A stretch of 62,855 nucleotides of DNA, counting the filler. It is 10 parts of 10 records of this genome, joined end to end, with 100 filler letters (N's around TTAATTAATTAA, not from the genome) between each part and the next. Parts side by side here need not be neighbours in the genome. Positions count along the whole stretch, not along the records: positions 60,802 to 62,855 come from SRR11831586_136; 9 more parts are not named here. One strand, given 5' to 3'. Below the pieces are notes generated by a model that was not told the DNA's origin, searched no databases, and was given only the letters and a program-made list of their open reading frames with translations. The position numbers and the translations under genes are program-made. Every line of letters starts with the position of its first letter. The first letter of the stretch is position 1. Shown one piece after another: positions 1 through 62,855 of the stretch.

Positions 1-554
1 ACCTCCAGCGTACGCGAGGTAATCAACTGCGCCTGACGGAACAGCTCCGGCACCTGGATTGTCGCGGCCAGCGACGTATCTTTTACCAGGCTAATAAAGC
101 TGTTCGACAGCGGCGGCAACGCCACACGCGCCGCCTGTGGCAAAATCGCGCGACGCATGGTCTGCCACGGCGTCATACCAATACTGGCTGCCGCTTCCCA
201 CTGACCTTTATCAATAGAAGAAATGGCGGCGCGCAGCGTTTCGGCAGCATAGGCGGCAGTGTTCAACGACAGACCAATCATTGCTGACGGAATGGGATCT
301 AATTCGATACCAAACTGCGGCAGGCCGTAATAGATCATAAACAGTTGTGCGATGAGCGGCGTACCACGAAAAATAGAGATATAAAAACGCGCCAGCCAGC
401 GCACGGGCCAGATTGGCGACAGACGCATCAGCGCGAGAATAAACCCGAGCAGTAAGCCAAAAAACATGCCGCCGATACTGAGTTGCAGCGTATACCCAGC
501 CCCTTTCAGCAGGAACGGCAAGGAATCAATAACCAGTTGTATACTTTCTTGCAT
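1..554 (-). CDS. tcyL: Cystine ABC transporter permease (3' end runs off window)
   Basis: ATG at 554 reads MQESIQLVIDSLPFLLKG; contains RGTPLIAQL and the EAA loop; lies downstream of dcyD (yecS position). Confidence 0.93.
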   Translation of the reverse strand, partial: MQESIQLVIDSLPFLLKGAGYTLQLSIGGMFFGLLLGFILALMRLSPIWPVRWLARFYISIFRGTPLIAQLFMIYYGLPQFGIELDPIPSAMIGLSLNTAAYAAETLRAAISSIDKGQWEAAASIGMTPWQTMRRAILPQAARVALPPLSNSFISLVKDTSLAATIQVPELFRQAQLITSRTLE

Positions 555-568
555 GAGCGTTTCCGGAG

Positions 569-1648
<1,080 letters not shown>

Positions 1649-1660
1649 TCATTATGCTGA

Positions 1661-2461
1661 TTATTTGGTCACATCAGCACCAAACCATTTTTCGGAAAGG
1701 GCTTGCAGAGTGCCATCTTTTTGCATTTCCGCAATTGCATCATTCACTGCTTTCAGCAGGTCCTCATTTCCTTTACGCAGCGCCACGCCAGACTCCTGAC
1801 GGGAGAATGCTTCACCGGTTACTGCCAGCGTATCGTTGGTTTTCTTCACCAGATCCAGCGCCGCCAGACGATCAACGAGGATCGCATCGATACGCCCTAC
1901 GCGCAGATCCTGATATTTGGTCGGGTCATCATCATAGGTACGCACATCGACGCCCTGAACATTCTGCCGCAGCCACTCTTCATAGTTGGTGCCCAGACCG
2001 ACCCCCACTTTTTTGCCTTTCAGATCATCGGCTGTTTTAATGGTGCCTTCGTTACCTTTTTTCACCAGCGCCTGAATACCAGAAATGGTGTACGGGGTTG
2101 AGAAATCGTATTTTTTCTTGCGCTCATCAGAAATGGTGACCTGATTAATCACCACATCAATACGTTTAGAGTCCAGCGACGCCAGCATACCGTCCCATTT
2201 GGTCGGTTTTAGTGACGCCTCAACGCCAAGATGTTTTGCCAGCTGTTGGGCAAATTCCACTTCAAAACCGGTTAATTTGCCGTCATCTCCCTGAAAACTG
2301 AACGGCGGATAAGTTCCTTCCAGCCCTACCAGCAGCGTGCCGCGCTCTTTAACTTTATTAAGCAGACCTTCATCTGCAAAACTTTTAACGCTCATGCCCG
2401 CAACCAGCGCCACGGCCATCACACCCATCAATGCCTGACGTCCCAGATGTGCTAATTTCAT
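1661..2461 (-). CDS. fliY: Cystine ABC transporter periplasmic binding protein
   Basis: Start MKLAHLGRQ at 2461 gives 266 aa; signal peptide and SBP family 3 motifs (also called tcyJ). Confidence 0.96.
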   Translation of the reverse strand: MKLAHLGRQALMGVMAVALVAGMSVKSFADEGLLNKVKERGTLLVGLEGTYPPFSFQGDDGKLTGFEVEFAQQLAKHLGVEASLKPTKWDGMLASLDSKRIDVVINQVTISDERKKKYDFSTPYTISGIQALVKKGNEGTIKTADDLKGKKVGVGLGTNYEEWLRQNVQGVDVRTYDDDPTKYQDLRVGRIDAILVDRLAALDLVKKTNDTLAVTGEAFSRQESGVALRKGNEDLLKAVNDAIAEMQKDGTLQALSEKWFGADVTK

Positions 2462-2548
2462 ATTCACCCCGAATGTTGTTATGTCTGTTTGCAGTGTAGA
2501 GCCATTGTTTGTAAACACAAAAACAACTCCGCTACATCTTATTCTTAT

Positions 2549-3100
2549 TTAATATATATCAGAAGAAGGCAGGCTGGAGGATTTCTGCACAAGTCTGGTA
2601 CAGGTTTGGCGCTGATAGTGTTGATACTTCCGTAACGCGATGCGGTAATTGTTGGTGCTGGTGGTGGGCAGCCACGGGGCGAGGATTTCATCAAGGAAAC
2701 CGTCCTGCAGCTGATCGAGGGAAATATTTTGCTCGTGTAGATGATTCCCCAAACGGCGCAAACGAACGACATATTCACGCACCGTACCTGGGCTCATTTC
2801 AGTTTGCTCAAAAAGAAATTGCTTAAAGCCGATAATATCGAAAAAATCACTCTGCGTTTTGCAATGTAAATCACCGCAAAATCGGCACAATGCCGCCCAT
2901 GATTTTTGTTCCGTTTGCCAGCCATTTTCATCAAGCAGCGTGTCCAGGCGGGAAATCTCGATTTTATTCACTATTTTGCCGTCGCGAACTAAGGTAATGC
3001 GATCGAGTAATTTACGGCAATGCGCGCAATGGGTCTGGCTGTGTTTAAAGTCTTTAAGATAGCGGCTTAATGGCCGTCTTTTCAGGTGCTGCACCATCAT
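2549..3100 (-). CDS. fliZ: Regulator FliZ (RpoS antagonist)
   Basis: MMVQHLKRRPL, 183 aa, GGAG RBS, between fliA and fliY. Confidence 0.95.
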   Translation of the reverse strand: MMVQHLKRRPLSRYLKDFKHSQTHCAHCRKLLDRITLVRDGKIVNKIEISRLDTLLDENGWQTEQKSWAALCRFCGDLHCKTQSDFFDIIGFKQFLFEQTEMSPGTVREYVVRLRRLGNHLHEQNISLDQLQDGFLDEILAPWLPTTSTNNYRIALRKYQHYQRQTCTRLVQKSSSLPSSDIY

Positions 3101-3145
3101 TAAGAACTCCTGGTAGTCAAAGTTAAAGTGCGGCATTTACTGACG

Positions 3146-3865
3146 TTATAACTTACCCAGTTTAGTGCGTAACCGTTTAATAGCCTGGCTGTGTAACTGA
3201 CTGACCCGCGATTCCCCGACCTCCAGCACCGCGCCAATCTCTTTGAGATTCAGCTCTTCCTGGTAATAGAGGGTTAATACCAGTTTTTCGCGCTCCGGCA
3301 ACGTTTCGATGGCTTCCATCACCCGCTGGCGCAGATTACTGTCCAGTAGTTGTTGTAGCGGGTTTTCTCGCTGATGATCATCAGTAACCAGTTCGATGCT
3401 ATCGCCGTGCTCTTCGCGCCACTCATCGTAGGAGAAGAGCTGGCTGTTATTGGTGTCGAGCAACATTTGGCGATAATCGGCAATATCGATCCCTAAACGT
3501 TCCGCTACCTCAGTTTCCGTGGCGTTGCGGCCAAGTTCCTGCTCCAGTTGCCCTATTGCCTGTGCCACTTCACGCGCGTTGCGTCGCACGCTGCGCGGCA
3601 CCCAGTCACGGCTGCGAAGTTCATCCAGCATAGCGCCACGGATACGCTGCACTGCGTAAGTTGTAAATGCCGTTCCTTGTAGGGCGTCATAGCGTTCGAC
3701 GGCATTAAGTAACCCAATGCCGCCCGCCTGTAGCAGATCGTCAAGTTCCACGCTCGCGGGCAGTCGAACCTGCAGGCGCAATGCTTCGTGACGCACCAGC
3801 GGGACATAACGCTGCCACAGCGAGTGTTTATCCATTACACCTTCAGCGGTATAGAGTGAATTCAC
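3146..3865 (-). CDS. fliA: Flagellar sigma factor sigma-28
   Basis: 239 aa with sigma regions 2 and 4 (DDLLQAGGIGL; SRVSQLH). Confidence 0.98.
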   Translation of the reverse strand: MNSLYTAEGVMDKHSLWQRYVPLVRHEALRLQVRLPASVELDDLLQAGGIGLLNAVERYDALQGTAFTTYAVQRIRGAMLDELRSRDWVPRSVRRNAREVAQAIGQLEQELGRNATETEVAERLGIDIADYRQMLLDTNNSQLFSYDEWREEHGDSIELVTDDHQRENPLQQLLDSNLRQRVMEAIETLPEREKLVLTLYYQEELNLKEIGAVLEVGESRVSQLHSQAIKRLRTKLGKL

Positions 3866-3890
3866 GATAAACAGCCCTGCGTTATATGAG

Positions 3891-3920
3891 TTATCGGCAT
3901 GATTATCCGTTTCTGCAGGG
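3891..3920 (-). promoter_or_regulatory. Sigma-28 promoter of fliA
   Basis: Perfect GCCGATAA -10 box on the minus strand at 3891-3898; weak -35. Confidence 0.7.
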
Positions 3921-3986
3921 TTTTTAATCGGACGATTAGTGGGTGAAATGAGGGGTTATTTGGGGGTTACAGGTAAATTCCAGGCA

Positions 3987-4010
3987 GAAAAAACCCCGCC
4001 GGTGGCGGGG
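3987..4010 (-). terminator. Intrinsic terminator (fliC side)
   Basis: Minus strand CCCCGCC-ACC-GGCGGGG followed by T7. Confidence 0.8.
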
Positions 4011-4041
4011 AAGCACGTTGCTGACAAATTGCGCTTTATGT

Positions 4042-4068
4042 TGCCGGATGCGGCGTAAACGCCTTATC
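4042..4068. repeat. REP element truncated at contig end
   Basis: TGCCGGATGCGGCGTAAACGCCTTATC matches the REP consensus. Confidence 0.9.
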
Positions 4069-4168
4069 NNNNNNNNNNNNNNNNNNNNNNNNNNNNNNNN
4101 NNNNNNNNNNNNTTAATTAATTAANNNNNNNNNNNNNNNNNNNNNNNNNNNNNNNNNNNNNNNNNNNN
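4069..4168. other. Artificial contig linker
   Basis: 44 N + TTAATTAATTAA (stops in six frames) + 44 N. Confidence 0.99.
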
Positions 4169-4245
<77 letters not shown>

Positions 4246-4264
4246 CTGCTCCAGACGCCGCAAC

Positions 4265-4543
4265 TTACTGCTGTGACGCCTGCTGAAACAGGTTTTCCCA
4301 CATATCGGTCACCAGCGCCTGGTCACGCGGCGACAATTCACCAGCACCAATGGCTTTTTCCAGACTCTGGCTAACGGTCGTATGCACCGCCTGAGCGGAG
4401 TGGTCATCACCACTTTCCAGTTCTGCGATGGCTAATGTCAGGTGGCCACGCAAATACCCACTGGCAAACAACTCATCATCACTGGCATGGTCAACCATAC
4501 CGTCGATTAATGCCAGAATGCGTGATTCAAACTCCGCGATCAT
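4265..4543 (-). CDS. yfcL: YfcL family protein
   Basis: 92 aa [10 protein letters not shown]; synteny with epmC. Confidence 0.92.
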
Positions 4544-4576
4544 CTTCTTTCCTCATTGTAAAACGTGGCGCTGGCT

Positions 4577-5125
4577 TCAGTTGAGCGCTTCCGGCCACGG
4601 GAACTGTTCCGCCGTAAGTTCCGGCGTGTGATAATAATTTTGTAGTGCTTTAATGAAGCGTGCCGGACGTTCCGGAATGCCATTTGTCAGATAATCCATC
4701 ACCTGCGCATGTACTCGCCGTTGAAACACCACACGATCCGGTTCGAAATCCCCTTCCAGATTGTCGCAACTGACGTTAAACGGATATCCCGCCGCCACAC
4801 AGAACAACCAGTCGAGCGCCTGCGGCTTCACTTCAACATCTTCAAACTGGCTTTGCGTTTGGGCATCGCGTCCGTCCGGGCAATACCAGTAGCCGAAATC
4901 AACCAGCTCACGGCGCGCTTTCCCGGCAATACACCAGTGCGAAATCTCATGAATTGCGCTGGCATAAAAGCCATGAGCAAAGACGATTCGGTTATACGGT
5001 ACTTCCGCATCAGCAGGAAGATAGATCGGTTCGTCGTCGCCTTTAATCAGACGGGTATTAAAATCATCGGCAAAGCAGCTATTAAAAATTTCAATCAACT
5101 GCTCGTAGTGGTGTGTACTGTTCAT
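4577..5125 (-). CDS. epmC: Elongation factor P hydroxylase
   Basis: Start MNSTHHYEQ at 5125, 182 aa; HEISHW and DFGYWY motifs (yfcM). Confidence 0.94.
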   Translation of the reverse strand: MNSTHHYEQLIEIFNSCFADDFNTRLIKGDDEPIYLPADAEVPYNRIVFAHGFYASAIHEISHWCIAGKARRELVDFGYWYCPDGRDAQTQSQFEDVEVKPQALDWLFCVAAGYPFNVSCDNLEGDFEPDRVVFQRRVHAQVMDYLTNGIPERPARFIKALQNYYHTPELTAEQFPWPEALN

Positions 5126-5934
5126 TAGTTCATCCCCAACCAGTGGAGGATCTCCTGTCCGTGGCTGTCGTAAAGTAATTTGGCACTCATCACCGCCGAG
5201 ACGATAACAATCATCGGGCGGATCAGCTTTTGTCCTTTGCTCAACACCAGTCGTGAACCCATGCGCGCGCCGAGGAACTGCCCCACCAGCATGACAAAGC
5301 CCGTCGCCCAAATCACTTTGCCGCCGAGAATAAACAGCAGTAAACCGCCGATGTTTGACGTTGCGTTGAGTAATTTGGCGTGAGCCGTGGCTTTGGCGAG
5401 GTTAAATCCGCACAGCGTAACGAAGGCCAGCGCGTAAAACGACCCGGCAGCCGGGCCAAAGAATCCATCATAAAAACCGACGCAGCCACCGGCTATTAAC
5501 GCGAAGGGTAAACCGTACATCCGGCGCTGGCGGTCTTCTTCACCTAGCTTTGGCATCAGCAAGAAATAGAGGCCGATACAAATTACCAGAATGGGCAAAA
5601 TCTGCCGTAAGACATCAGCCTGAACGTATTGCACCAGCAGTGCGCCGCTCATTGAGCCGACAAAGGTCATGGCGATATTGAGTTTCTGATCGCTTAAACT
5701 AACCACTTTGCGGCGAATAAAGTAGATAGTAGCGGAAATAGAGCCGCCGCAGGCTTGCAGTTTATTGGTTGCCAGCGCATTAGCGGGAGACATCCCCGCT
5801 GCCATCAATGCCGGAATGGTGAGTAACCCACCGCCACCGGCAATCGAGTCGATAAATCCCGCCAGCATGGCGACAAAAAAGAGAACTCCCAGCAACAGCG
5901 GGGAAACCATAAACAGGCTATTAAACGTTTCCAT
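5125..5934 (-). CDS. yfcA: TauE/SafE (TSUP) family membrane protein
   Basis: 269 aa hydrophobic; AGFIDSIAGGGG and GFYDGFFGP. Confidence 0.94.
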   Translation of the reverse strand: METFNSLFMVSPLLLGVLFFVAMLAGFIDSIAGGGGLLTIPALMAAGMSPANALATNKLQACGGSISATIYFIRRKVVSLSDQKLNIAMTFVGSMSGALLVQYVQADVLRQILPILVICIGLYFLLMPKLGEEDRQRRMYGLPFALIAGGCVGFYDGFFGPAAGSFYALAFVTLCGFNLAKATAHAKLLNATSNIGGLLLFILGGKVIWATGFVMLVGQFLGARMGSRLVLSKGQKLIRPMIVIVSAVMSAKLLYDSHGQEILHWLGMN

Positions 5935-6758
5935 TAGATCACGTGCTCATCCAGTAGCGCCTGGCAGGAAGGCGGCAACGGAGGCGGTGTCTTCTTCTCA
6001 GGCTTTGTTGTTCCCGGTTTTGGAGGTTCAAACCAGCTTTGCAGTTCTGCCCCGCAACCATCGCCTGATGGCGGTAAAGGTTGATCTTCACACTCCAGAC
6101 TATCGGCAGGGCAACGTAATCGTACATGCATATGCGCGCGATGCTGGAACCAGGGTCGCACTTTGCGCAACCAGTCGCGATCGGTGCCCGCATCAAGGCA
6201 AAGTTGTTGTTTAATCGCCGGATTAACAAAAATGCGCGTGACGTCTTTGTCCTGGGCGGCGAGTTTGATCAAGCTGAAAATTTCTGGCTTCCACAGCGTG
6301 GAGACAACGTGTTTACCGTCGCGGGAAACTAAGTCCAGTGCTTGCGGGCGCAAGAGCTGCGCGGAGGTCCAGCGAGTTTTCGGCAGTTGCAGAAAGATAT
6401 CGACATCCAGTCCGGTCTGGTGGCTGGCATGACCGCCGTTGAAACGCCCACCAGCGGGCATCCCCATATCGCCAATCAGCACCGTACCCATGCCCAGATT
6501 GCTCACCTGGCTACTCAGACGCTGGATAAACATCACCAGATCCGGGTGACCGAAATAGCGACGCTGATCGGTACGCATGACCTGATAATGTTCGGACTGT
6601 ATCGGCAGCGTGTCAGCGCCGACAATACAGCCATTAGAAAAACTGCCTATCGATTGTGCGCTACCCGGCACAGGTTGGGTTATTTTTTGCCACGGCGTCG
6701 CTGCCAGGCTGGCGCTACTGGCAAGCAGAGCCAGCAGCGCAATCGCGGTTTTATTCAT
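5934..6758 (-). CDS. mepA: Penicillin-insensitive murein endopeptidase
   Basis: 274 aa with signal peptide, [11 protein letters not shown] and HMH zinc motifs. Confidence 0.96.
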
Positions 6759-6761
6759 TTT

Positions 6762-7847
6762 TTACCAGCGTGGAATATCAGTCTTCACATCGGCATTTTG
6801 CGCCCGTTGCCGTAACAGGTGATCCATTAAAACGATCGCCAGCATCGCTTCTGCGATCGGCACTGCGCGGATCCCGACACAGGGATCGTGACGGCCTTTG
6901 GTGATCATCTCAACTTCTTCGCCAAAGCGGTTAATGGTACGACCCGGCACGGTAATGCTGGAGGTCGGTTTCAGCGCCATATGGGCAATGATTTGCTGCC
7001 CGCTGCTGATACCGCCGAGAATGCCGCCCGCATGGTTGCTCTGGAAACCGTCTTTGGTGATTTCATCGCGGTTCTGGCTGCCGCGCAGCGCCACCACGTC
7101 AAAGCCGTCGCCAATTTCCACGCCTTTCACCGCGTTGATGCTCATCAGCGCATGGGCGATGTCAGCATCCAGGCGGTCAAAGACCGGCTCGCCAAGTCCG
7201 GCAGGAACGCCACTGGCAACAACGGTGACTTTAGCGCCGATGGAGTCGCCCTCTTTTTTCAGCGCACGCATCAACTCGTCTAACGCGTCGATTTTGTCGG
7301 GGTCCGGGCAAAAAAACGGATTTTGCTCGACCTGCGACCAGTCTTTGATATCCAGCGGAATGTCGCCCATCTGGGTCAGGCAGCCACGGATTTCAATACC
7401 AAATTTCTCGGCGAGATATTTTTTGGCAATAGCTCCTGCCGCCACGCGCATGGCGGTTTCGCGGGCGGAAGAACGTCCACCGCCGCGATAATCGCGCAGA
7501 CCGTATTTTTGTTCGTAGGTGTAATCGGCATGGCCTGGACGGAAAACGTCCTTAATCGCACTGTAATCCTGAGAGCGCTGGTCAGTGTTTTCGATCAACA
7601 AGCCAATGCTGGTGCCGGTAGTAACGCCTTCAAAAACACCGGAGAGAATTTTGACCTGATCCGGCTCGCGGCGCTGGGTGGTATAGCGCGATGTCCCAGG
7701 GCGACGACGGTCGAGGTCATGTTGCAGGTCCGCTTCCGTCAGCGGAATGCCTGGCGGAACACCATCGACGATGCAGCCGAGCGCCAGCCCGTGCGATTCG
7801 CCGAAGGTGGTTACGCGAAAGAGTTGTCCAATTGTGTTTCCAGCCAT
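6762..7847 (-). CDS. aroC: Chorismate synthase
   Basis: MAGNTIG start; [12 protein letters not shown] and RHDPC signatures; 361 aa. Confidence 0.98.
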
Positions 7848-7881
7848 CACGGCTCCGTTATTGTTGTGTTTGCGTGTTTAC

Positions 7882-8803
7882 TTAATCTTTATAAATCGCG
7901 AAATGTTCTCGTGCGGCAATAAGCTGCTCTTTGGTGAGCATAAACACACCATCGCCGCCGTTATCAAACTCCAGCCAGGTGAACGGAACATCCGGATATT
8001 GTTCCATAAGATGTACCATGCTGTTGCCGACTTCACAAATCAACACGCCATCATCAGCAAGGTAATCTGCCGCGTTACCGAGAATGCGACGCGTCAGTTT
8101 CAGGCCGTCAGTGCCAGATGCCAGGCCCAGTTCCGGCTCGTGGCGGTATTCGTTTGGCAGGTCGGACATATCTTCCGCATCGACATACGGCGGGTTAGTG
8201 ACAATCAGGTCGTACTGCACTTTCGGCAAGTCGCGGAACAGATCGGAACGAATCGGAATGACGTTGTGGATCAGACCGTGTTCTTCGATGTTCTGTTCAG
8301 CAACCGCCAGCGCGTCTGGAGAGATATCCACCGCGTCGACTTCTGCATCCGGGAAGGCATAAGCACAGGCAATGGCGATGCAGCCGCTACCAGTACACAT
8401 ATCTAAAATATGCTGCGGTTGCTTGCTGATAAGTCCGGCAAATTTATTGTTGATCAGTTCACCAATCGGCGAGCGCGGCACCAGCACGCGTTCATCGACG
8501 TAAAATTCATGGCCGCAGAACCACGCTTTGTTGGTCAGGTAAGCCACCGGAATGCGTTCATTGACGCGGCGGATCACGCGTTCAACAATACGGTGTTTTT
8601 CGCTGGAGGTCAGACGCGCGGTGCGCATATCTTCCGGAATATCCAGCGGCAGGTAGAGCGAAGGCAACACCAGCTGTACGGCTTCATCCCACGGGTTATC
8701 GGTACCGTGACCGTACCAGATATTTGCCGCGCTGAAGCGGCTCACCGACCAGCGCAACATGTCCTGAATGGTTTGCAGCTCATTTACTGCTTCATCAACG
8801 AAA
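7882..8803 (-). CDS. prmB: Ribosomal protein L3 N5-glutamine methyltransferase (start lost at contig end)
   Basis: [14 protein letters not shown] motif and NPPY; frame stays open to the linker. Confidence 0.96.
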
Positions 8804-8903
8804 NNNNNNNNNNNNNNNNNNNNNNNNNNNNNNNNNNNNNNNNNNNNTTAATTAATTAANNNNNNNNNNNNNNNNNNNNNNNNNNNNNNNNNNNNNNNNN
8901 NNN
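8804..8903. other. Artificial contig linker
   Basis: N44-TTAATTAATTAA-N44. Confidence 0.99.
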
Positions 8904-10617: not shown

Positions 10618-10637
10618 CGAAGTTGAGCAATACAACT

Positions 10638-10720
10638 TGCCGGATGCGGCGTGAATGCTTTATTCGGCATACATAATCAATACGTCGTTTGCAGGCCTGA
10701 TAAGCGCAGCGCATCAGACA
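10638..10720. repeat. BIME-1/RIB element (two inverted REPs around an IHF-like site)
   Basis: Degenerate REP, AATCAATACGTCG spacer, inverted REP, between convergent pspF and puuE. Confidence 0.8.
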
Positions 10721-10736
10721 TTATTGCGTTGGGCTA

Positions 10737-14401: not shown

Positions 14402-14501
14402 NNNNNNNNNNNNNNNNNNNNNNNNNNNNNNNNNNNNNNNNNNNNTTAATTAATTAANNNNNNNNNNNNNNNNNNNNNNNNNNNNNNNNNNNNNNNNNNN
14501 N
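14402..14501. other. Artificial contig linker
   Basis: N44-TTAATTAATTAA-N44. Confidence 0.99.
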
Positions 14502-27301: not shown

Positions 27302-27401
27302 NNNNNNNNNNNNNNNNNNNNNNNNNNNNNNNNNNNNNNNNNNNNTTAATTAATTAANNNNNNNNNNNNNNNNNNNNNNNNNNNNNNNNNNNNNNNNNNN
27401 N
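27302..27401. other. Artificial contig linker
   Basis: N44-TTAATTAATTAA-N44. Confidence 0.99.
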
Positions 27402-29141
27402 AAGGTTAAATTCCTCACCTGCAATTTCATGCGCTTTCTTTTCCAGCTCAGCCAGACGAAGGGTGAGCTCTTCAGAATGATTGTGCAGCACTTTCGGATC
27501 GATCTTCACACCGTTACGTTCAATGCGTGAAAGCACCGGCACCAGCGGCATTTCGATATTCTCGAAGACGTTCAACGGCCCTTTGTGTTTTTGCAGATCC
27601 GGCCACATTTTCAGATGCAACTGCAAGGTGACATCTGCATCTTCGGCGGCGTAACGTCCGGCTTCTTCGAGGGCAATCTGGTTAAAGGTCAGTTGATTTT
27701 TGCCTTTACCAGCAATCTCTTCAAAAGTGATGGTTTTGTGCTTCAACCAACGTTCCGCGAGGCTGTCCATATCGTGACGCCCGGCAACGCTATTGAGAAT
27801 GTAGGACTCCAGCATGGTATCAAACGCAATCCCACGCAGTTCAATGCCGTAGTTCGCCAGAATACCGCGATCGTATTTCAGGTTTTGCCCGACCTTCAGC
27901 GCCTTTTCATCTTCCAGCAGCGGTTTTAGCAACTCGAGTGCACGCTCGCGAGAGATTTGATCGGGCGCATCAAGATAATCATGAGCAACCGGAATATATG
28001 CCGCTACGCCTGGCTCGATAGCAAAAGAAAGCCCGACCAGGTTAGCAGAGATGTTATCAAGGCTGTCGGTTTCGGTATCAAATGCAAATACCGGCGCTTT
28101 TTCCAGCTTCGCAATCCACGCTTTCAGTGTTTCTTCATCAAGGATGGTGACGTAGTTGTCATAAGAAATCACCGTTGCCGTCACTTCTGGTGCTTCGTCT
28201 GCAACACTGGTTTCCTGTGGCTTCGCGGCTGGTTTTGCCCCTTTGGCCTGTAACCATTTGCCCGCTTCGACATCAGCAGTCCAGCGTTTGAACTCATACT
28301 TTTTGAACAGCCCCAACAACTCTTCCGCTGCCGGTTGCTGCACTTCCAGTTGTTCACAGGTCAGCTCCAGTTCAACGTCGGTTTTAATCGTCGCCAGCTG
28401 GTATGAGAGATAAGCAACTTCTTTGTTTTGCTCGAGCTTCGCTGCCATTGTTTTCGCGCCACGGAAGCTCAACCCAGCAATTTTTTCTGGCTCGGCATAC
28501 AGCGTATCCAGTCCGCCAAGACCTTGCAGCAATGCCTGCGCGGTTTTTTCACCGACGCCCGGTACGCCAGGAATGTTATCAGAGGAGTCACCCATCAGCG
28601 CCAGGAAATCGATGATCAGTTCTGGCGGCACGCCGTACTTATTCACCACCTCTTCCGGTCCGAGGATGGTATTCGTCATGGTATTGATAAGCGTAATATT
28701 TGGCGTCACCAGCTGCGCCATATCTTTATCGCCAGTGCTGATCAGCACCGGACGCCCGGCTTTTTCGGCTTCGCGCGCCAGAGTACCGATAACGTCGTCC
28801 GCTTCTACGCCAGAAACCGCCAGCAGCGGCAGTCCCATCGCTTTAACCATCGCGTGCAAGGGTTCGATTTGTGCACGCAGATCGTCCGGCATTGGCGGGC
28901 GATGTGATTTGTAATGTTCAAACAGTTCATCACGAAAGGTTTTTCCCTTGGCGTCAAAGACCACCGCTGCATGCGTCGGTTTATATTGCATGATCAGACT
29001 GCGCAGCATGTTGAGGACACCATACATCGCACCGGTCGGCTCGCCTGCGCTGTTAGTCAGCGGGGGAAACGCGTGATATGCGCGATAAAGATAAGATGAA
29101 CCATCTACAAGGATAAGTGGATTTTGGGGGATCTGAACCAT
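27402..29141 (-). CDS. polA: DNA polymerase I (3' truncated)
   Basis: [21 protein letters not shown]; 5'-3' exonuclease and 3'-5' exonuclease (FDTET) domains. Confidence 0.98.
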
Positions 29142-29264
29142 AATGTCCGTGCCTGTTTATCAGATTATGGGTAAAGGATGCCACAGACAGGATGAAAACA
29201 TGAGTTTTTCACCGCTTTTCGTGAAAATCTTTTGTAGATCTTCTGGATCGCTCGCAAATCGTCA

Positions 29265-29285
29265 TGTGGATAACTTTGTGCATAA
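29265..29285 (-). promoter_or_regulatory. DnaA boxes upstream of polA
   Basis: Minus strand TTATCCACA (29265-29273) and TTATGCACA (29277-29285); a near match at 29406-29414. Confidence 0.75.
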
Positions 29286-29504
29286 ATTATTTACATCGCT
29301 TTTAATTTATTATCATGCTTTTTACAGCATGATGTTTGTCTTTGTTTTTCATGCAGTTAAAAATAAATCCATCCCTAATAATTGAGATAATGGGATTTTT
29401 TCTAATGTGGATAGATATGAATTATTTTTCTCCTTAAGGATCATCCGTTATTTGGGTCGTTTTCTGCTAAAATCTGCGCCTTGCGCTTCTTTAGCGCACT
29501 GTCT

Positions 29505-30437
29505 ATGGCTAACCTTTTGAATAAATTCATTATGACGAGAATACTCGCTGCGATAACCCTTTTGCTGAGTATCGTATTGACCATTTTGGTCACTATTTTT
29601 TGTTCCGTCCCGATCATCATTGCCGGGATTGTAAAACTATTGCTACCTGTGCCAGTCATTTGGCGAAAGGTTTCGCGTTTTTGTGATTTTATGATGTATT
29701 GCTGGTGTGAAGGTCTGGCGGTATTACTGCATCTGAACCCACACCTTCAATGGGAAGTTCACGGGCTGGAAGGGTTAAGTAAGAAGAACTGGTATCTGCT
29801 TATTTGTAACCACCGTAGTTGGGCAGATATTGTCGTACTGTGCGTGCTGTTTCGTAAGCACATTCCGATGAATAAATATTTCCTCAAGCAACAGCTGGCC
29901 TGGGTGCCATTTCTTGGCCTGGCGTGCTGGTCGCTGGATATGCCGTTTATGAAGCGTTATTCCCGCGCTTATTTATTACGTCATCCGGAGCGACGTGGTA
30001 AAGATGTTGAAACCACTCGGCGTTCTTGTGAAAAGTTTCGCCTGCATCCCACCACCATTGTCAATTTCGTTGAAGGCTCCCGTTTCACGCAAGAAAAACA
30101 TCAGCAAACCCACTCCACTTTTCAAAACTTGTTGCCACCAAAGGCGGCAGGCATTGCGATGGCGCTAAATGTACTGGGTAAACAATTCGATAAACTGCTT
30201 AATGTTACGCTGTGTTATCCGGACAATAACCGTCAGCCGTTCTTCGATATGTTAAGCGGTAAACTGACGCGGATTGTCGTACATGTGGATTTACAGCCTA
30301 TTGCCGATGAGTTACATGGCGACTACATCAATGACAAAAGCTTTAAGCGCCATTTTCAGCAATGGCTGAACTCATTGTGGCAGGAAAAAGACCGGCTTCT
30401 GACGTCTCTCATGTCATCACAGCGTCAGAATAAGTAA
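29505..30437 (+). CDS. yihG: Lysophosphatidic acid acyltransferase
   Basis: 310 aa; NHRSWAD and FVEGSR motifs. Confidence 0.94.
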
Positions 30438-30442
30438 GTTTT

Positions 30443-30470
30443 ACTCGCCTCTGAATGAGCAGAGGCGAGT
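30443..30470. terminator. Hairpin between convergent yihG and yihF
   Basis: ACTCGCCTCTG-aatgag-CAGAGGCGAGT. Confidence 0.7.
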
Positions 30471-30477
30471 GAGTATT

Positions 30478-31908
30478 TTAATGAACAAAACGTCCGGCAC
30501 GAGACATAAATTCTTCTTCGCTCATCTCCTGTCCGTTAAAAACAACTTTACCCGGTGTATAACGCAGCTGCAGCGAGGCGGTATTGTTGTCAATCGTGAT
30601 TAACTGAAACATCTGACCTAATGTCATCATCCCGCTGATTTGTTTATCAGCCTGCTTTTGCGCTTTTTCCGCATCCATTCCTTCAGATAAATTAAGCTGT
30701 TTTGCGGTTTCTGTGACGACATTAAGCGGTAACTTCACATCAAAATTGAGCGATTTGATATCTTTGTTTGTGGATGATGAAGATTTGGCTGGGTCGGCAA
30801 TACTGATATCCAGATTGGCATTTAGTTCGCCGAGTGCGTTCTTCCATCTTACCGGTTGTTTAATGGTCGGCTCACTTTTTTGTAATAACGGTAAATACTC
30901 TTTGAACAATGCAGCATTCACTTCTTGCAGAGCAACTTCATCGTTTGCTAACTCAGGGTGTGCAGCAAGCTGCTTCTGCATCGCAATGTTATACTGGATG
31001 ATAAATTGGCGCACTGCTGAGGGATCAATAGATTCAGCAATCAATGACCACTCACCACTACCGAGTTGCTGATTCCCTTTTGTTAACTTATCAAGTTCGT
31101 AGGTGAGATTGACATTGATATAATCTTTGTCTTTAACGCGATCCAGCCTGGTTTTTGCAACGAAAGCATCGATTTGGGCAACGTCTTCCCCGTGATTGAT
31201 AATGTTAATCTGATTAAATTTCGACTCGCTTTCACCAACCGGAAATTTCTTTTCTTCTAATCGCGCCAGAGAATCAATGGTAAAACTTTTTGCCGTTACT
31301 TTGTTCATTGGTGATAATTGCAGAACAATATCTTCGACTTTGCCTTCAATATCCAGGTTAGACAATGAACTACCATCACCATTAAAAGTAAACTGGCCCT
31401 CACCAAAAGAAAACTTTCCATACTCTGCAGGGGCAACATCTAATGTCGTAGAGAATGAGCCACCAAACGCGAATCGCAATGTCGCTTCCACGGGCGATTT
31501 ATTTTTCGCGGCGATAAATAGCGGTTGTGTCAGTTCATTATTCACTAAGTTCACTTTTGCCGCTGCCAGTGCTGGGATGACATTACCATGCATTAACATT
31601 GTGATGGGCAACGGACCGTGCTCAACATCCACATCAAATACAACTTTCTGGCCTGGCTTGATATTGAGATCGGGTGCACCGTTATCGAATGTCATTTGCA
31701 TTTGAAAACGGGAATTAAAAAAGCCTTTGTCAAAATTTTGATAACTTAACGTCATATCGTAGGCATGTTCACCTTTCTTTTTAGCATCGTTAAAATCTTT
31801 AATAAATTTTTCGACACCAGGCTGAATTTGCGTACCTGTGTACCATGTGCCACCACCCCAGATTACGGCTAACGCAACAATAACACCTGTAGCTGACTTA
31901 CGTATCAT
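30478..31908 (-). CDS. yihF: DUF945 (YdgA family) protein
   Basis: 476 aa from MIRKSATG; GGGTWYTG and VEHGPLP. Confidence 0.92.
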   Translation of the reverse strand: MIRKSATGVIVALAVIWGGGTWYTGTQIQPGVEKFIKDFNDAKKKGEHAYDMTLSYQNFDKGFFNSRFQMQMTFDNGAPDLNIKPGQKVVFDVDVEHGPLPITMLMHGNVIPALAAAKVNLVNNELTQPLFIAAKNKSPVEATLRFAFGGSFSTTLDVAPAEYGKFSFGEGQFTFNGDGSSLSNLDIEGKVEDIVLQLSPMNKVTAKSFTIDSLARLEEKKFPVGESESKFNQINIINHGEDVAQIDAFVAKTRLDRVKDKDYINVNLTYELDKLTKGNQQLGSGEWSLIAESIDPSAVRQFIIQYNIAMQKQLAAHPELANDEVALQEVNAALFKEYLPLLQKSEPTIKQPVRWKNALGELNANLDISIADPAKSSSSTNKDIKSLNFDVKLPLNVVTETAKQLNLSEGMDAEKAQKQADKQISGMMTLGQMFQLITIDNNTASLQLRYTPGKVVFNGQEMSEEEFMSRAGRFVH

Positions 31909-32014
31909 ATAAATATTCCCTGATAAAACAGCAAAACTTTGAATATCCACTTATGCTGAAATAATGTCCAGCGGCAGGATGCATTATCAGAATGTATTTA
32001 TATTTATTAAATAA

Positions 32015-32046
32015 TAAAAAAAGCCCGTGAATATTCACGGGCTTTA
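32015..32046 (-). terminator. Intrinsic terminator (dsbA side)
   Basis: AAAGCCCGTGAATATTCACGGGCTTT palindrome followed by a T tract on the minus strand. Confidence 0.8.
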
Positions 32047-32059
32047 TGTAATTTACATT

Positions 32060-32159
32060 NNNNNNNNNNNNNNNNNNNNNNNNNNNNNNNNNNNNNNNNN
32101 NNNTTAATTAATTAANNNNNNNNNNNNNNNNNNNNNNNNNNNNNNNNNNNNNNNNNNNN
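32060..32159. other. Artificial contig linker
   Basis: N44-TTAATTAATTAA-N44. Confidence 0.99.
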
Positions 32160-35818: not shown

Positions 35819-35918
35819 NNNNNNNNNNNNNNNNNNNNNNNNNNNNNNNNNNNNNNNNNNNNTTAATTAATTAANNNNNNNNNNNNNNNNNNNNNNNNNN
35901 NNNNNNNNNNNNNNNNNN
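35819..35918. other. Artificial contig linker
   Basis: N44-TTAATTAATTAA-N44. Confidence 0.99.
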
Positions 35919-39287: not shown

Positions 39288-40589
39288 TTAACGTTTTCCG
39301 CTGTGCAACCAGAACGGTTCCTGATTGTTTGCCTCATTACGGAAATGTTCAATTTCGATGCGTTGCCCGGTCGCAATAGCGTGATGCAGCCCCTGCCAGT
39401 TCTCCAGCCAGGCTTGCGCGACGACAGGATCATAGTAACCCGCCAGCAACAGTATTGAGTCAATATCACGCGTCAGGCGTGGCAACTGGTCACGGTAGCG
39501 ATCGCCTAACGGCTGGCAGAAAACGCTTTTCAGTTCAGCGGCATGGCGGGAAAGATGGATATCGGCAAAGCGTTTGAAGGAGTCGCTGATTTTGCCCTGC
39601 GCTTTGGCATCTAAAAATGGCTGCCATGCTTTGCTTACCAACCATTCGGTCAACGCCAGCTTCGCCATTGCCGTTTCGGTAGAGTAGACCGCCGTCACGG
39701 CAGACACCGCAGAAGCAATGGTCGCCTCGCATTGAGTCAGCAGATCACGTAAGTGAGTGCTCGCTTTACGCGGCACAATACCACCGAACAGCATCAGCGT
39801 ATGACGGACCAGGCTAATGGCTGCCAGCACCTGTTCTTTCGCCGCATCGTTGCCGCGTACCCACAGTTCTTCATGATACTGCCATTGCGCTAACGCCAGC
39901 TCGAGCGCCGCTTCCAGCCCCTGTTCCACATCGGCTTTTGCCGCAACATGCAAAATGGTGGTCGGTTTGATTTCACGCGCCGGATTGCCCTGCGCCAGAT
40001 GATAGCCACGCGCCGCTTTGCTCAGGCTGCCCTGGCGTAATCCGGTTTGCGATACCAGTTGGTTCGCCAGTTTCAGCACCGCGCGCGTGTCGCCGCTAAG
40101 CAGTTCCAGTTCCAGCTCACAGATAGGTTCAGCAAATTCACCCGCTTTCACTTCCCCCTGGTCGAGGGCGATTTCAATTTGGCTACCATCGACCGCCACC
40201 AGCCATTTTTCGCGATAAAAATCGGTGCTGAACAGCGGCTGCACGCGGGAGGCGAGATCGGCGGGCAATTCGCCGTTCGGCCAGACTTCCGTCGGTAACT
40301 GCGCCAGGTCGAGCGTCGGTTCGCTCAACGCCACGTTATATTCCGGGCGCTGATGTAAGCCGCCTGTCACTCTTCCTGCAACTTTCATGGTCATCTCATA
40401 GCGACCGTTTTCGCCACGAATACGTAAGCCCATATCGTGCCCACGCAGCCAGTTATCCGGCGTTTCGTAGTAAATATTCAGCAACTGCACGGGGTCATGG
40501 TGCTCGCCGCCCAGCGTATTGAGATGGTCACGCAACGCCTCAACGGCACTGTGATTAACAATAAACTTTAATTCGATTTCCTGAGCCAT
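39288..40589 (-). CDS. ygiF: Inorganic triphosphatase (CYTH-CHAD)
   Basis: 433 aa; EIELKF and ELELEL. Confidence 0.95.
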
Positions 40590-42794: not shown

Positions 42795-42894
42795 NNNNNN
42801 NNNNNNNNNNNNNNNNNNNNNNNNNNNNNNNNNNNNNNTTAATTAATTAANNNNNNNNNNNNNNNNNNNNNNNNNNNNNNNNNNNNNNNNNNNN
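42795..42894. other. Artificial contig linker
   Basis: N44-TTAATTAATTAA-N44. Confidence 0.99.
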
Positions 42895-46503: not shown

Positions 46504-46603
46504 NNNNNNNNNNNNNNNNNNNNNNNNNNNNNNNNNNNNNNNNNNNNTTAATTAATTAANNNNNNNNNNNNNNNNNNNNNNNNNNNNNNNNNNNNNNNNN
46601 NNN
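46504..46603. other. Artificial contig linker
   Basis: N44-TTAATTAATTAA-N44. Confidence 0.99.
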
Positions 46604-60005: not shown

Positions 60006-60701
60006 ATGCATCGACAATCCTTTTTCCTTGTGCCCCTTATTTGTCTTTCTTCCGCTCTCTGGGCGGCTCCTGCAACGGTAAATGTCGAAGTACTGCAAGA
60101 CAAACTCGACCATCCCTGGGCACTGGCCTTTTTACCCGATAATCACGGTATGTTAATCACTCTGCGCGGCGGCGAGTTGCGTCACTGGCAAGCAGGAAAA
60201 GGATTATCTGCGCCGCTTTCCGGAGTTCCGGACGTTTGGGCGCACGGGCAGGGCGGCCTGCTGGACGTGGTTTTAGCGCCTGATTTTGCTCAGTCTCGCC
60301 GCATCTGGTTAAGTTATTCCGAAGTTGGCGATGATGGCAAAGCCGGAACTGCTGTGGGTTATGGCCGCTTAAGTGATGATCTCTCAAAAGTGACCGACTT
60401 CCGCACCGTCTTTCGCCAGATGCCAAAACTGTCTACCGGCAACCATTTTGGCGGGCGGCTGGTATTCGACGGTAAAGGTTATCTTTTTATTGCTCTGGGC
60501 GAAAACAATCAGCGCCCGACGGCGCAGGATCTGGATAAATTACAGGGCAAACTGGTGCGTCTGACCGACCAGGGCGAAATCCCGGATGATAATCCTTTTA
60601 TAAAGGAATCCGGTGCGCGCGCCGAGATCTGGTCTTATGGCATTCGTAATCCGCAAGGAATGGCGATGAATCCGTGGAGTAATGCACTGTGGCTGAATGA
60701 A
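60006..60701 (+). CDS. yliI: PQQ-dependent aldose sugar dehydrogenase (3' truncated)
   Basis: HPWALAFLP, GQGGLLDV, HFGGRL, YGIRNPQG. Confidence 0.95.
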
Positions 60702-60801
60702 NNNNNNNNNNNNNNNNNNNNNNNNNNNNNNNNNNNNNNNNNNNNTTAATTAATTAANNNNNNNNNNNNNNNNNNNNNNNNNNNNNNNNNNNNNNNNNNN
60801 N
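60702..60801. other. Artificial contig linker
   Basis: N44-TTAATTAATTAA-N44. Confidence 0.99.
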
Positions 60802-62822
60802 TGCATGCCATCCACAACGATGTCCTACACACACGCACACACAGATACAGACAGACACAAACACACACACAGACACAAAGGAACGTGCAAGGATCATGAG
60901 TATGCATTCACACACATACGGACATATTTTCCACACACAGGCACAAAGTCATACAGTATGCACACATAGCATAACATCGCGCAACTTTTACGCAGTAACA
61001 CATTCACACACAGGAAAAATGCACACCTGCACAACGCCTCCGCGCTCGCGTCCTGACTTGATAAACAGTCCGTTACCGGTTAGTCGCATCGTGTTATTTC
61101 GGAGAGTCACATTGTGCACACCTCCACCCGTCTCACTAATTTGCGCAGAGTGTTAAAAGAAAACATACACAGACACACACAAACAATGTCAAAGAAACGA
61201 AGCACGCACACGACCTACACACTCACACATACATACACACTCACACGCACATACACGCACATACACGCACACACACACACCTCCCGATCGCTAATCCGTT
61301 CCCCGGCCCGAACACGTTGTTTTCCACCACAATATTCTGTGAGGGCACACCAAACGCCACCCCTGCCTCATCCCAACCGCTCTTGATTGCAATGTTGTCA
61401 TCTGCCCACATTTTGTCAGTATATGCATGCGCGGTGTAGTGGCAAAAACGACGAGACGAAGAACCACTAGCGGGTATGCGACAAGATATGTACTTGTAAA
61501 ATGTTGAAAGATGAGTCTACTGACAATGACATAAAATCTAATACAAACGAAAAATACAGAAAGTAATAACAGCTGTTGGACAGACCCGACCATTGTGCAA
61601 CGCACGCTTCATATAACAAATTCGTATACAGAACAACAACTCGCAGCACAGCCAGCACATACGCACTTGCTCTGTATGTAAGGACGCGGCAGACACCCAC
61701 GTGTCAATCTGCGAACATATAACAACACACACGCAACATACCGCCACACTGGATCACGTTATTGGCGATATAAACCATGTTGCTAGAATCGGGGTCAATA
61801 CCGTCCGTGTTGGCTACCAGCGGGTTGAGAATGTGACAGTTGGTAACACGTACATTTTCGCAGTACACGGGGTGTACGGTCCAGAAGGGACTACAGAACA
61901 AGCAAAGTGAATCTTAGATCGATACACGCAGACACAGACACGCACAACAAGCACGCGTCATACTCGCATACTCCCTCGCTCATTCACTTATACACTAGCA
62001 CAGTGTCACGCACTCACACACTCACGCACATATACACAGATACAGTCACATGAAATAAGCAATGACGCGTATCGATGCAGCTAAAGGCTGCACGCACAAC
62101 AACAACGCGTGTGTGCAACTCAAATGTCAGTAGACGATCACTTGCGATCAGATGTATTACCATAGCGTTCAAGAAACACAAACAGAAACAGATGACGAAT
62201 GCATGTATCTAGAGAGTGTGTGTGAAGAGACACAGAAAGAAGCAAACACCGCGCTACCTGTTTTTGAATGTCATGTTATCGATGACGATGTTGGTGCCGT
62301 ACTGAACCTCAAGCAAACCAGGGCGCGTGCAGTTCAGCTACAATAGCAAACACAACACACACACACACGTACACACATACACACTGCGTCAGGCTTATGG
62401 ATTTTCAAACTCCGCTACGAGCGATATCCCGTACATCAACCGCGAGCACAAACAGTGAATGATACGTGTAACTCGTATACACTGAACAACTAACACCGAC
62501 ACCTGAGCTGGTATCCACAGAGCAACGCACAAACGTTCTCTAGGACAGTACATACAGCACATTTATACACGAATACATATGCTATGAACGTACCATGCCC
62601 TGATCATGCCATGTGTACCACTCTTGTCCCTGTCCGTCAATCACACCACCACCTGCCAGCACAACACACCGCCACACACATAACACACACGTAGTAATAC
62701 ATTTACACGGACACATACACATGCACATACAAACGTGTAGATACGCACGAATGACAGCGTCAGCGAACAGCGTGTGACACTGCAACAACGCATACATACC
62801 TGTGAAAGTCAGATCGGTAACA
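60802..62822 (-). CDS. Intron-containing eukaryotic GH28 (polygalacturonase-like) gene, partial at both ends
   Basis: Exons 62822-62800, 62652-62594, 62337-62258, 61890-61742, 61401-61281, 61135-61027, 60824-60802; all six introns are GT..AG and in phase; product contains IDGQG, RP, NSPFW, NTDGID, GDDNIAIKSG, AIGSE, IKS..RGG. Confidence 0.92.
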
Positions 62823-62855
62823 CTGAGGACATACACACACACACACACACACACA
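60825..62855. repeat. Dispersed imperfect (CA)n/(TG)n microsatellite tracts confined to introns
   Basis: Examples at 60826-60876, 61215-61280, 62350-62383 and 62833-62855. Confidence 0.9.

Follow-up and report, generated by a model that had tools for sequence, protein, structure and literature searches.

A fragment of an intron-rich GH28 polygalacturonase gene on a probable contaminant contig in an Escherichia coli draft assembly

How does a gene interrupted by six introns come to be filed with Escherichia coli, and is it joined to bacterial DNA at all? The window, that is, the whole stretch of 62,855 nucleotides that was analyzed, was resolved by a script locating N runs into ten draft contigs joined by nine identical 100-base linkers, at 4069-4168, 8804-8903, 14402-14501, 27302-27401, 32060-32159, 35819-35918, 42795-42894, 46504-46603, and 60702-60801. 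Each linker consists of 44 N, TTAATTAATTAA, and another 44 N, and TTAATTAATTAA yields a stop codon in all six frames. Six-frame-stop spacers of this kind serve to string draft contigs into one record. Since the window is a concatenation of draft contigs, features lying across a spacer from each other are not truly adjacent. The gene piece lies wholly within the tenth and last contig (60802-62855, 2,054 bp), which is preceded by a linker and runs to the end of the window. The first-pass annotation had placed it within E. coli DNA, but the linker at 60702-60801 separates it from the contig that carries rimO, bssR, and yliI.

The tenth contig stood out by its texture. Its GC content is 0.468, with plus-strand frequencies of 0.34 for A, 0.285 for C, 0.18 for G, and 0.19 for T. 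Stop-free frames of at least 100 amino acids cover 0.39 of its length, compared with 0.74 to 0.98 in the other nine contigs, and (TG/CA)n runs amount to 112 bases here and to none in the other nine. All 14 rows of the tandem-repeat scan within the contig fall in introns or in a 33-nt remnant of an upstream intron. On the plus strand, the five stop-free frames tested were His/Thr-rich translations of CA repeats, none of which matched a Pfam family, and a search of the contig against Rfam gave no match at an E value of ≤0.1. Megablast against 5,426 complete E. coli genomes (20,395 records) gave no match for the contig, nor was one found in G001, the nearest genome compared, or among 72,556 plasmids in a sensitive distant-mode search. 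With a linker at one end, the window end at the other, and no genome match, physical continuity with E. coli sequence was not found.

On the minus strand, seven exon pieces were found to join into a single frame. The contig breaks within a (TG)n microsatellite (AC in period 2, 13.5 copies, 62829-62855) in the 3' end of an upstream intron, which runs to the acceptor cctcag (62855-62823). Exon piece 1 (62822/62821-62800, 23 nt) opens with the last base of a codon, the other two bases of which are outside the contig, and ends with the G of the split codon G|GT; most blastp alignments begin at its residue 1. Intron 1 (62799-62653, 147 nt) is followed by exon piece 2 (62652-62594, 59 nt), with tblastn matches at 62665-62609. 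Intron 2 (62593-62338, 256 nt) contains an (AC/TG) repeat at 62350-62384 and leads to exon piece 3 (62337-62258, 80 nt; tblastn 62325-62260), which ends with the AG of AG|T. Downstream of intron 3 (62257-61891, 367 nt), exon piece 4 (61890-61742, 149 nt) encodes PFWTVHP and NTDGIDPDS, ends with the G of G|AT, and reached E values of 8e-05 against PF00295 and down to 1e-14 in tblastn.

Intron 4 (61741-61402, 340 nt) precedes exon piece 5 (61401-61281, 121 nt; tblastn 61405-61283), which completes the GDD motif and ends with the AG of a second AG|T. Intron 5 (61280-61136, 145 nt) is mostly a TG-rich tandem repeat (61207-61280), and exon piece 6 (61135-61027, 109 nt) completes a G-S-E motif and carries K170 and R175-G-G. 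A further TG-rich repeat (60827-60879) occupies part of intron 6 (61026-60825, 202 nt), and exon piece 7 (60824-60802, 23 nt) is ended by the contig edge. Intron bounds, computed from the coordinates, are GT..AG in six of six cases. The spliced frame of 563 nt encodes 187 residues without a stop, with split codons G|GT, AG|T, G|AT, and AG|T and the two remaining junctions in phase 0. Every number previously given for the splice sites, the six intron lengths, the split codons, and the frame was thus reproduced, the exon-wise translations agreed with the peptide of about 187 residues proposed earlier, and the earlier remark that the ORF track was unable to show the gene was borne out.

The exons have a GC content of 0.52 and a GC3 of 0.61, while the introns range from 0.44 to 0.48 in GC and from 0.61 to 0.77 in T+G. 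GT..AG borders, a frame kept throughout, and homology running continuously across the junctions are all features of a nuclear gene with spliceosomal introns. PMC4691745 describes (GT)n/(AC)n intron pairs, and the gene piece is without such pairs. Literature on TG-rich introns in algae, judged from abstract openings, offered nothing usable.

Membership in family GH28 was supported both exon by exon and for the spliced product. Scanned separately, exons 4, 5, and 6 matched PF00295 with E values of 8e-05, 0.0096, and 0.074, at profile positions 121 to 161, 164 to 191, and 201 to 230, i.e., in profile order. The individual scores of 22.3, 15.5, and 12.6 bits each lie below the gathering score of 22.9, with a rough sum of 50.4; the Pfam check proposed earlier, run exon-wise, was borne out in the order of the matches and fell short in the score of each. 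Exon 3 (26 amino acids), scanned alone against Pfam, gave no match. In blastp, the spliced peptide aligned over residues 1 to 182 up to 1 to 187 with GH28 polygalacturonases at 44 to 52% identity and E values down to 5e-57. Proteins matched in this way themselves score against PF00295 at E values of 1.9e-61 and 2.1e-40. Taken together, the exon-wise Pfam scores and the blastp result place the piece in GH28 (PF00295), as a eukaryotic gene with spliceosomal introns, the identification made at the outset and now backed by profile order, tblastn, and conserved columns.

The junctions were supported as well. When four full-length homologues were searched against the DNA with tblastn, collinear minus-strand matches were obtained for exons 2 to 6 in three reading frames, and the homologue coordinates abut (for P0042, 55 to 110, 110 to 150, and 151 to 191). 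Conservation was assessed in an alignment of 65 rows, comprising the query and 64 relatives (44 nonbacterial and 20 bacterial). Conservation among the 64 relatives reached 90% or more at 30 columns, and at each of them the query carries the consensus. These columns include S54, D104, and S144, which arise from the split codons AG|T, G|AT, and AG|T and are conserved in 60 to 64 of the 64 relatives; without the proposed junctions, none of the three would be present. Within 5 residues of junctions 3 to 6, none of the 44 nonbacterial rows has an indel. Junctions 1 and 2 lie within a variable stretch of the alignment, and across junction 2 GQG and TR are as far apart as in the closest homologue.

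That the GT/AG sites and open frames line up by chance could be argued only from how common GT dinucleotides are in TG-rich DNA. E values down to 5e-57, Pfam matches in profile order, collinear tblastn matches, and 30/30 conserved columns with three split-codon residues among them leave such a coincidence a negligible probability, and the gene pattern is far beyond chance.

The gene is not whole, as had been claimed for it with seven exons. The piece matches approximately residues 150 to 350 of homologues of about 470 amino acids, roughly the middle 40%, and is truncated at both ends. Because it begins right after a splice acceptor and ends at the contig edge, it represents a gene fragment rather than a complete gene. 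The suggestion that the gene is functional is likewise untenable for this record, since the piece is truncated, has no start, and contains six introns that bacteria cannot remove.

The same anatomy bears on genuine horizontal transfer, by which this E. coli would have naturally captured or integrated intron-bearing eukaryotic nuclear DNA. Only the filing in an E. coli record speaks for such an event, which is extremely improbable: no E. coli base is joined to the contig, which linkers bound; the contig is absent from all of the 5,426 complete E. coli genomes; its composition is unlike that of every other contig in the window; and six unspliceable introns have been kept while both gene ends are missing.

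The sequence motifs of the family were examined against the definitions of the GH28 motifs, and the role of the motif aspartates, given in PMC6102391. Motif I (N81-T-D83) and motif II (G103-D104-D105) are present, and their N and three D residues are each invariant in 64/64 relatives. Motif III, by definition G-H-G with a catalytic His, reads G143-S-E145 in the query, with the S found in 63 and the E in all 64 of the relatives. The G-S-E in place of G-H-G characterizes the subfamily as a whole, so that this copy is not defective in motif III. From motif IV (R-I-K), K170 is kept, as in 64/64 relatives, and the position of the R (168) is occupied by F. The equivalent residue is R in 36 of 44 nonbacterial and 9 of 20 bacterial rows, with N and Y also occurring. 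R175-G-G is kept.

With 30/30 conserved columns retained, the visible part looks intact for its source organism, and the product is predicted to have enzymatic activity; full activity is not assured, because F replaces the R of the RIK motif. A profile of the subfamily, A1, built mostly from homologues and not from the window sequence, was compared with solved structures and matched 3jur (E value of 3.5e-70) and 5olp (7.1e-63), followed by 1bhe, 7b7a, and 7b8b, the last two from Arabidopsis. This match of the subfamily profile to solved beta-helix GH28 structures suggests a right-handed parallel beta-helix fold for the product.

The closest known system is the plant and protist "probable polygalacturonase" subfamily with PF12708 and PF00295, represented by Hevea (P0059), Tripterygium (P0008), Welwitschia (P0015), and an Alexandrium cluster (P0092/P0069). 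The query shares PFWTVHP, NTDGIDPDS, GDD..IAIKSG, GSE..GG, and K....RGG with these proteins and aligns nearly without gaps over the 187 residues. It differs from them in its identity of only 44 to 52%, in its position on a long branch outside their 96% clade, and in several substitutions: F in place of R two positions ahead of the conserved K, T-G for M-S after GSE, and E for G before RGG. The comparison covers the middle of the protein only, with the PF12708-type N-terminal part lying beyond the contig.

Among bacterial exo-acting GH28 enzymes (the exo-poly-alpha-D-galacturonosidase 3jur, 5olp, and the exopolygalacturonase 2uve), 3jur and 5olp gave the strongest matches of any solved structure to the profile of the subfamily. 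Homologues from bacterial genomes have the same motifs as the query at 33 to 46% identity and are without introns. Full-length-peptide alignments spanned 183 to 195 columns for plant and protist proteins, whereas most bacterial proteins required 204 to 227 columns owing to extra insertions. The classical endo-polygalacturonases (1czf PG II, 1bhe, 7b7a PGLR, and 7b8b ADPG2) belong to the same family, and the query shares with them the Asp of NTD, the Asp residues of DD, and the motif IV Lys. In contrast to the query and its subfamily, which have G-S-E, they have G-H-G as motif III. In PMC6102391, motif III is described as missing in "rhamno-PGs," and a clade E is described that spans algae to angiosperms; the query's subfamily would correspond to this clade E. 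The gene piece is a divergent, otherwise ordinary family member, and as such a new one of the well-known GH28 family.

Which organism the DNA came from was approached through its relatives. The best protein matches bearing names were land-plant "probable polygalacturonases" with PF12708 and PF00295, and by cluster name the relatives included Welwitschia (a gymnosperm), Alexandrium ostenfeldii (a dinoflagellate), a transcript of MMETSP (a marine protist transcriptome collection), and wheat. Bacterial relatives came from Treponema and other spirochaetes, Bacteroidota, and other bacteria. Identity to the 219 relatives fetched reached 52% at most, with a median of 45.8%; roughly 150 of these relatives were land-plant proteins, and the set also included bacterial, protist, and unnamed proteins. 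In a quick maximum-likelihood tree (65 rows, 209 columns, LG+G4, SH-aLRT supports only), the query grouped at 84% with sequences of land plants and protists and with unnamed ones, and it fell outside a clade of land plants, Alexandrium, and MMETSP with an SH-aLRT support of 96%. Its branch length of 0.77 makes this placement unsure.

Land-plant DNA as the contaminant, for example from material from which the strain was isolated, would fit the land-plant identity of the best named matches. It is nevertheless a decidedly unlikely source, given that identity stays at or below 52% even though roughly 150 of the 219 relatives are land-plant proteins, and that the query falls outside the 96% land-plant/dinoflagellate/MMETSP clade, its unsure placement notwithstanding. 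Flowering-plant introns are A/T-rich, unlike the introns of this gene with their GC of 0.44 to 0.48 and T+G of 0.61 to 0.77. The source was probably a eukaryote other than a land plant.

Searches for DNA or protein of the same organism were extended to contig collections. Exon 4 (149 nt), searched exactly against 32 million prokaryote contigs, gave no match. A degenerate protein-guided scan of metagenome contigs matched 299 stretches, with 101 relatives, of which 80 were kept, and the corresponding scan of genome contigs matched 317 stretches, with 116 relatives, of which 80 were also kept. The best relatives in both scans reached 56 to 68% over part of exon 4, with one exception of 85% over 13 residues. 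When the spliced peptide was searched against the 160 kept loci with tblastn, the best identity was 53%, over residues 1 to 87, and no TG-rich introns were found in these loci. The best protein match within exon 4 was 66%, and a protein search for exon-sized ORF fragments of the same organism returned one protein, at 64%. The profile search identified 6,215 family members at an E value of ≤1e-20 among 7,999 scored, and the best 120 of the 6,215 were at most 52% identical. Across these contig, protein, and profile searches, no DNA or protein of the same organism was found. The source may be a lineage without a sequenced close relative, its gene being at most 52% identical to relatives fetched from approximately 15 billion proteins.

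The reading that best accommodates these observations, with a probability of about 0.85, is that 60802-62855 is nuclear DNA of a eukaryote, present in the E. coli draft as contamination and carrying the central part of the GH28 gene. Contamination is favored because the contig is short and stands alone, breaks in a microsatellite, is foreign in composition, contains no host DNA, and carries a truncated gene with six introns. From this anatomy we infer contamination as the route, ahead of a cloned insert and not horizontal transfer. Draft-assembly contamination in general presents the same picture of a small unplaced contig of foreign composition, without a link to host DNA and filed with the host; proof usually comes from coverage and read pairs, and 60802-62855 is judged here from its sequence anatomy.

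The main alternative is that the strain carries the DNA as a cloned insert, for instance from a eukaryotic plasmid, fosmid, or BAC library, in which case the contig would be man-made yet physically part of the culture. Cloning is usually done in E. coli, and the low end of the contig (60802-60808) reads T followed by the palindromic hexamer GCATGC, so that the contig edge lies one base before the palindrome. This hexamer may be a cloning or restriction remnant or may be due to chance, and it is not significant alone, as 64 palindromic hexamers are possible. Vector sequence is missing from both contig ends, none of the 72,556 plasmids matched, the nine other contigs of the window are chromosomal, and one end falls within a (TG)n microsatellite, the kind of break that assemblers make at low-coverage repeats. 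A cloned insert is consequently considered unlikely.

Under contamination, eukaryotic nuclear DNA would have been carried into the E. coli draft assembly, and the contaminant contig would then have been concatenated with true E. coli contigs via the six-frame-stop linkers. The contig holds the central part of an intron-rich GH28 gene of the "probable polygalacturonase" subfamily, which occurs in plants, some protists, and bacteria. In the native host, splicing would remove six GT-AG introns from the pre-mRNA, and the encoded part of the product would make up the catalytic turns of a right-handed beta-helix hydrolyzing galacturonan-type pectin, with one Asp from NTD and two from GDD presumably carrying out catalysis. 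Within the E. coli record, the gene piece is inert.

Most likely, the gene piece is filed with E. coli through an artifact, and this has consequences mainly for curation, as at least one contig in the record does not come from E. coli whereas others do. Any gene count, pan-genome "accessory" list, or horizontal-transfer screen made from the record would carry over a false eukaryotic gene. The case also illustrates that a sequence-only reading can splice a gene correctly yet overlook the linker standing between that gene and its supposed host.

The remaining contigs that were tested proved to be ordinary E. coli chromosome. The end of contig 9 (58700-60701), with rimO, bssR, and a truncated yliI, matched 5,425 of the 5,426 complete E. 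coli genomes, at best with 100% identity. It stops inside yliI, the aldose sugar dehydrogenase gene (60600-60701), a truncation due to the contig end and not to mutation. Contigs 1 (1-4068; dcyD-tcyJ-fliA-fliZ), 2 (4169-8803; aroC-prmB-mepA), and 5 (27402-32059; polA-yihF-yihG) were 100% identical to complete E. coli chromosomes, in the case of contig 1 to those of K-12 strains. Contigs 3, 4, 6, 7, and 8 matched G001 with 93 to 100% identity, contig 7 having been searched to position 40000. The G001 positions of contigs 1 to 9 (approximately 2.00, 2.44, 1.36, 4.52, 4.03, 2.90, 3.19, 2.08, and 0.87 Mb) are scattered, and hence the contigs are out of chromosomal order.

Contigs 1, 2, and 5 scored only 78%, 83%, and 75% against G001. 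A second enteric genome in the mix, suggested by these identities of 75 to 83%, was rejected, as the same three contigs are 100% E. coli. The G001 identity figures therefore look unreliable, perhaps owing to masked stretches. The contig at 14502-27301 has a stop-free coverage of 0.74, the lowest among the E. coli contigs (0.89 to 0.98 in the others), with a GC content of 0.48; it is 100% identical to G001 4513588-4526388. The first ~85 bases of contig 2 (4169-4253) matched about 50 places in G001 at 76 to 98% identity, many of them in arrays with a spacing of ~100 bases. This stretch is a dispersed intergenic repeat and probably the source of the contig break. A second short repeat, at 10637-10732, matched several places in G001 (339138-339509 and 356876-357156) at 76 to 80% identity, with copies spaced about 100 to 200 bases apart.
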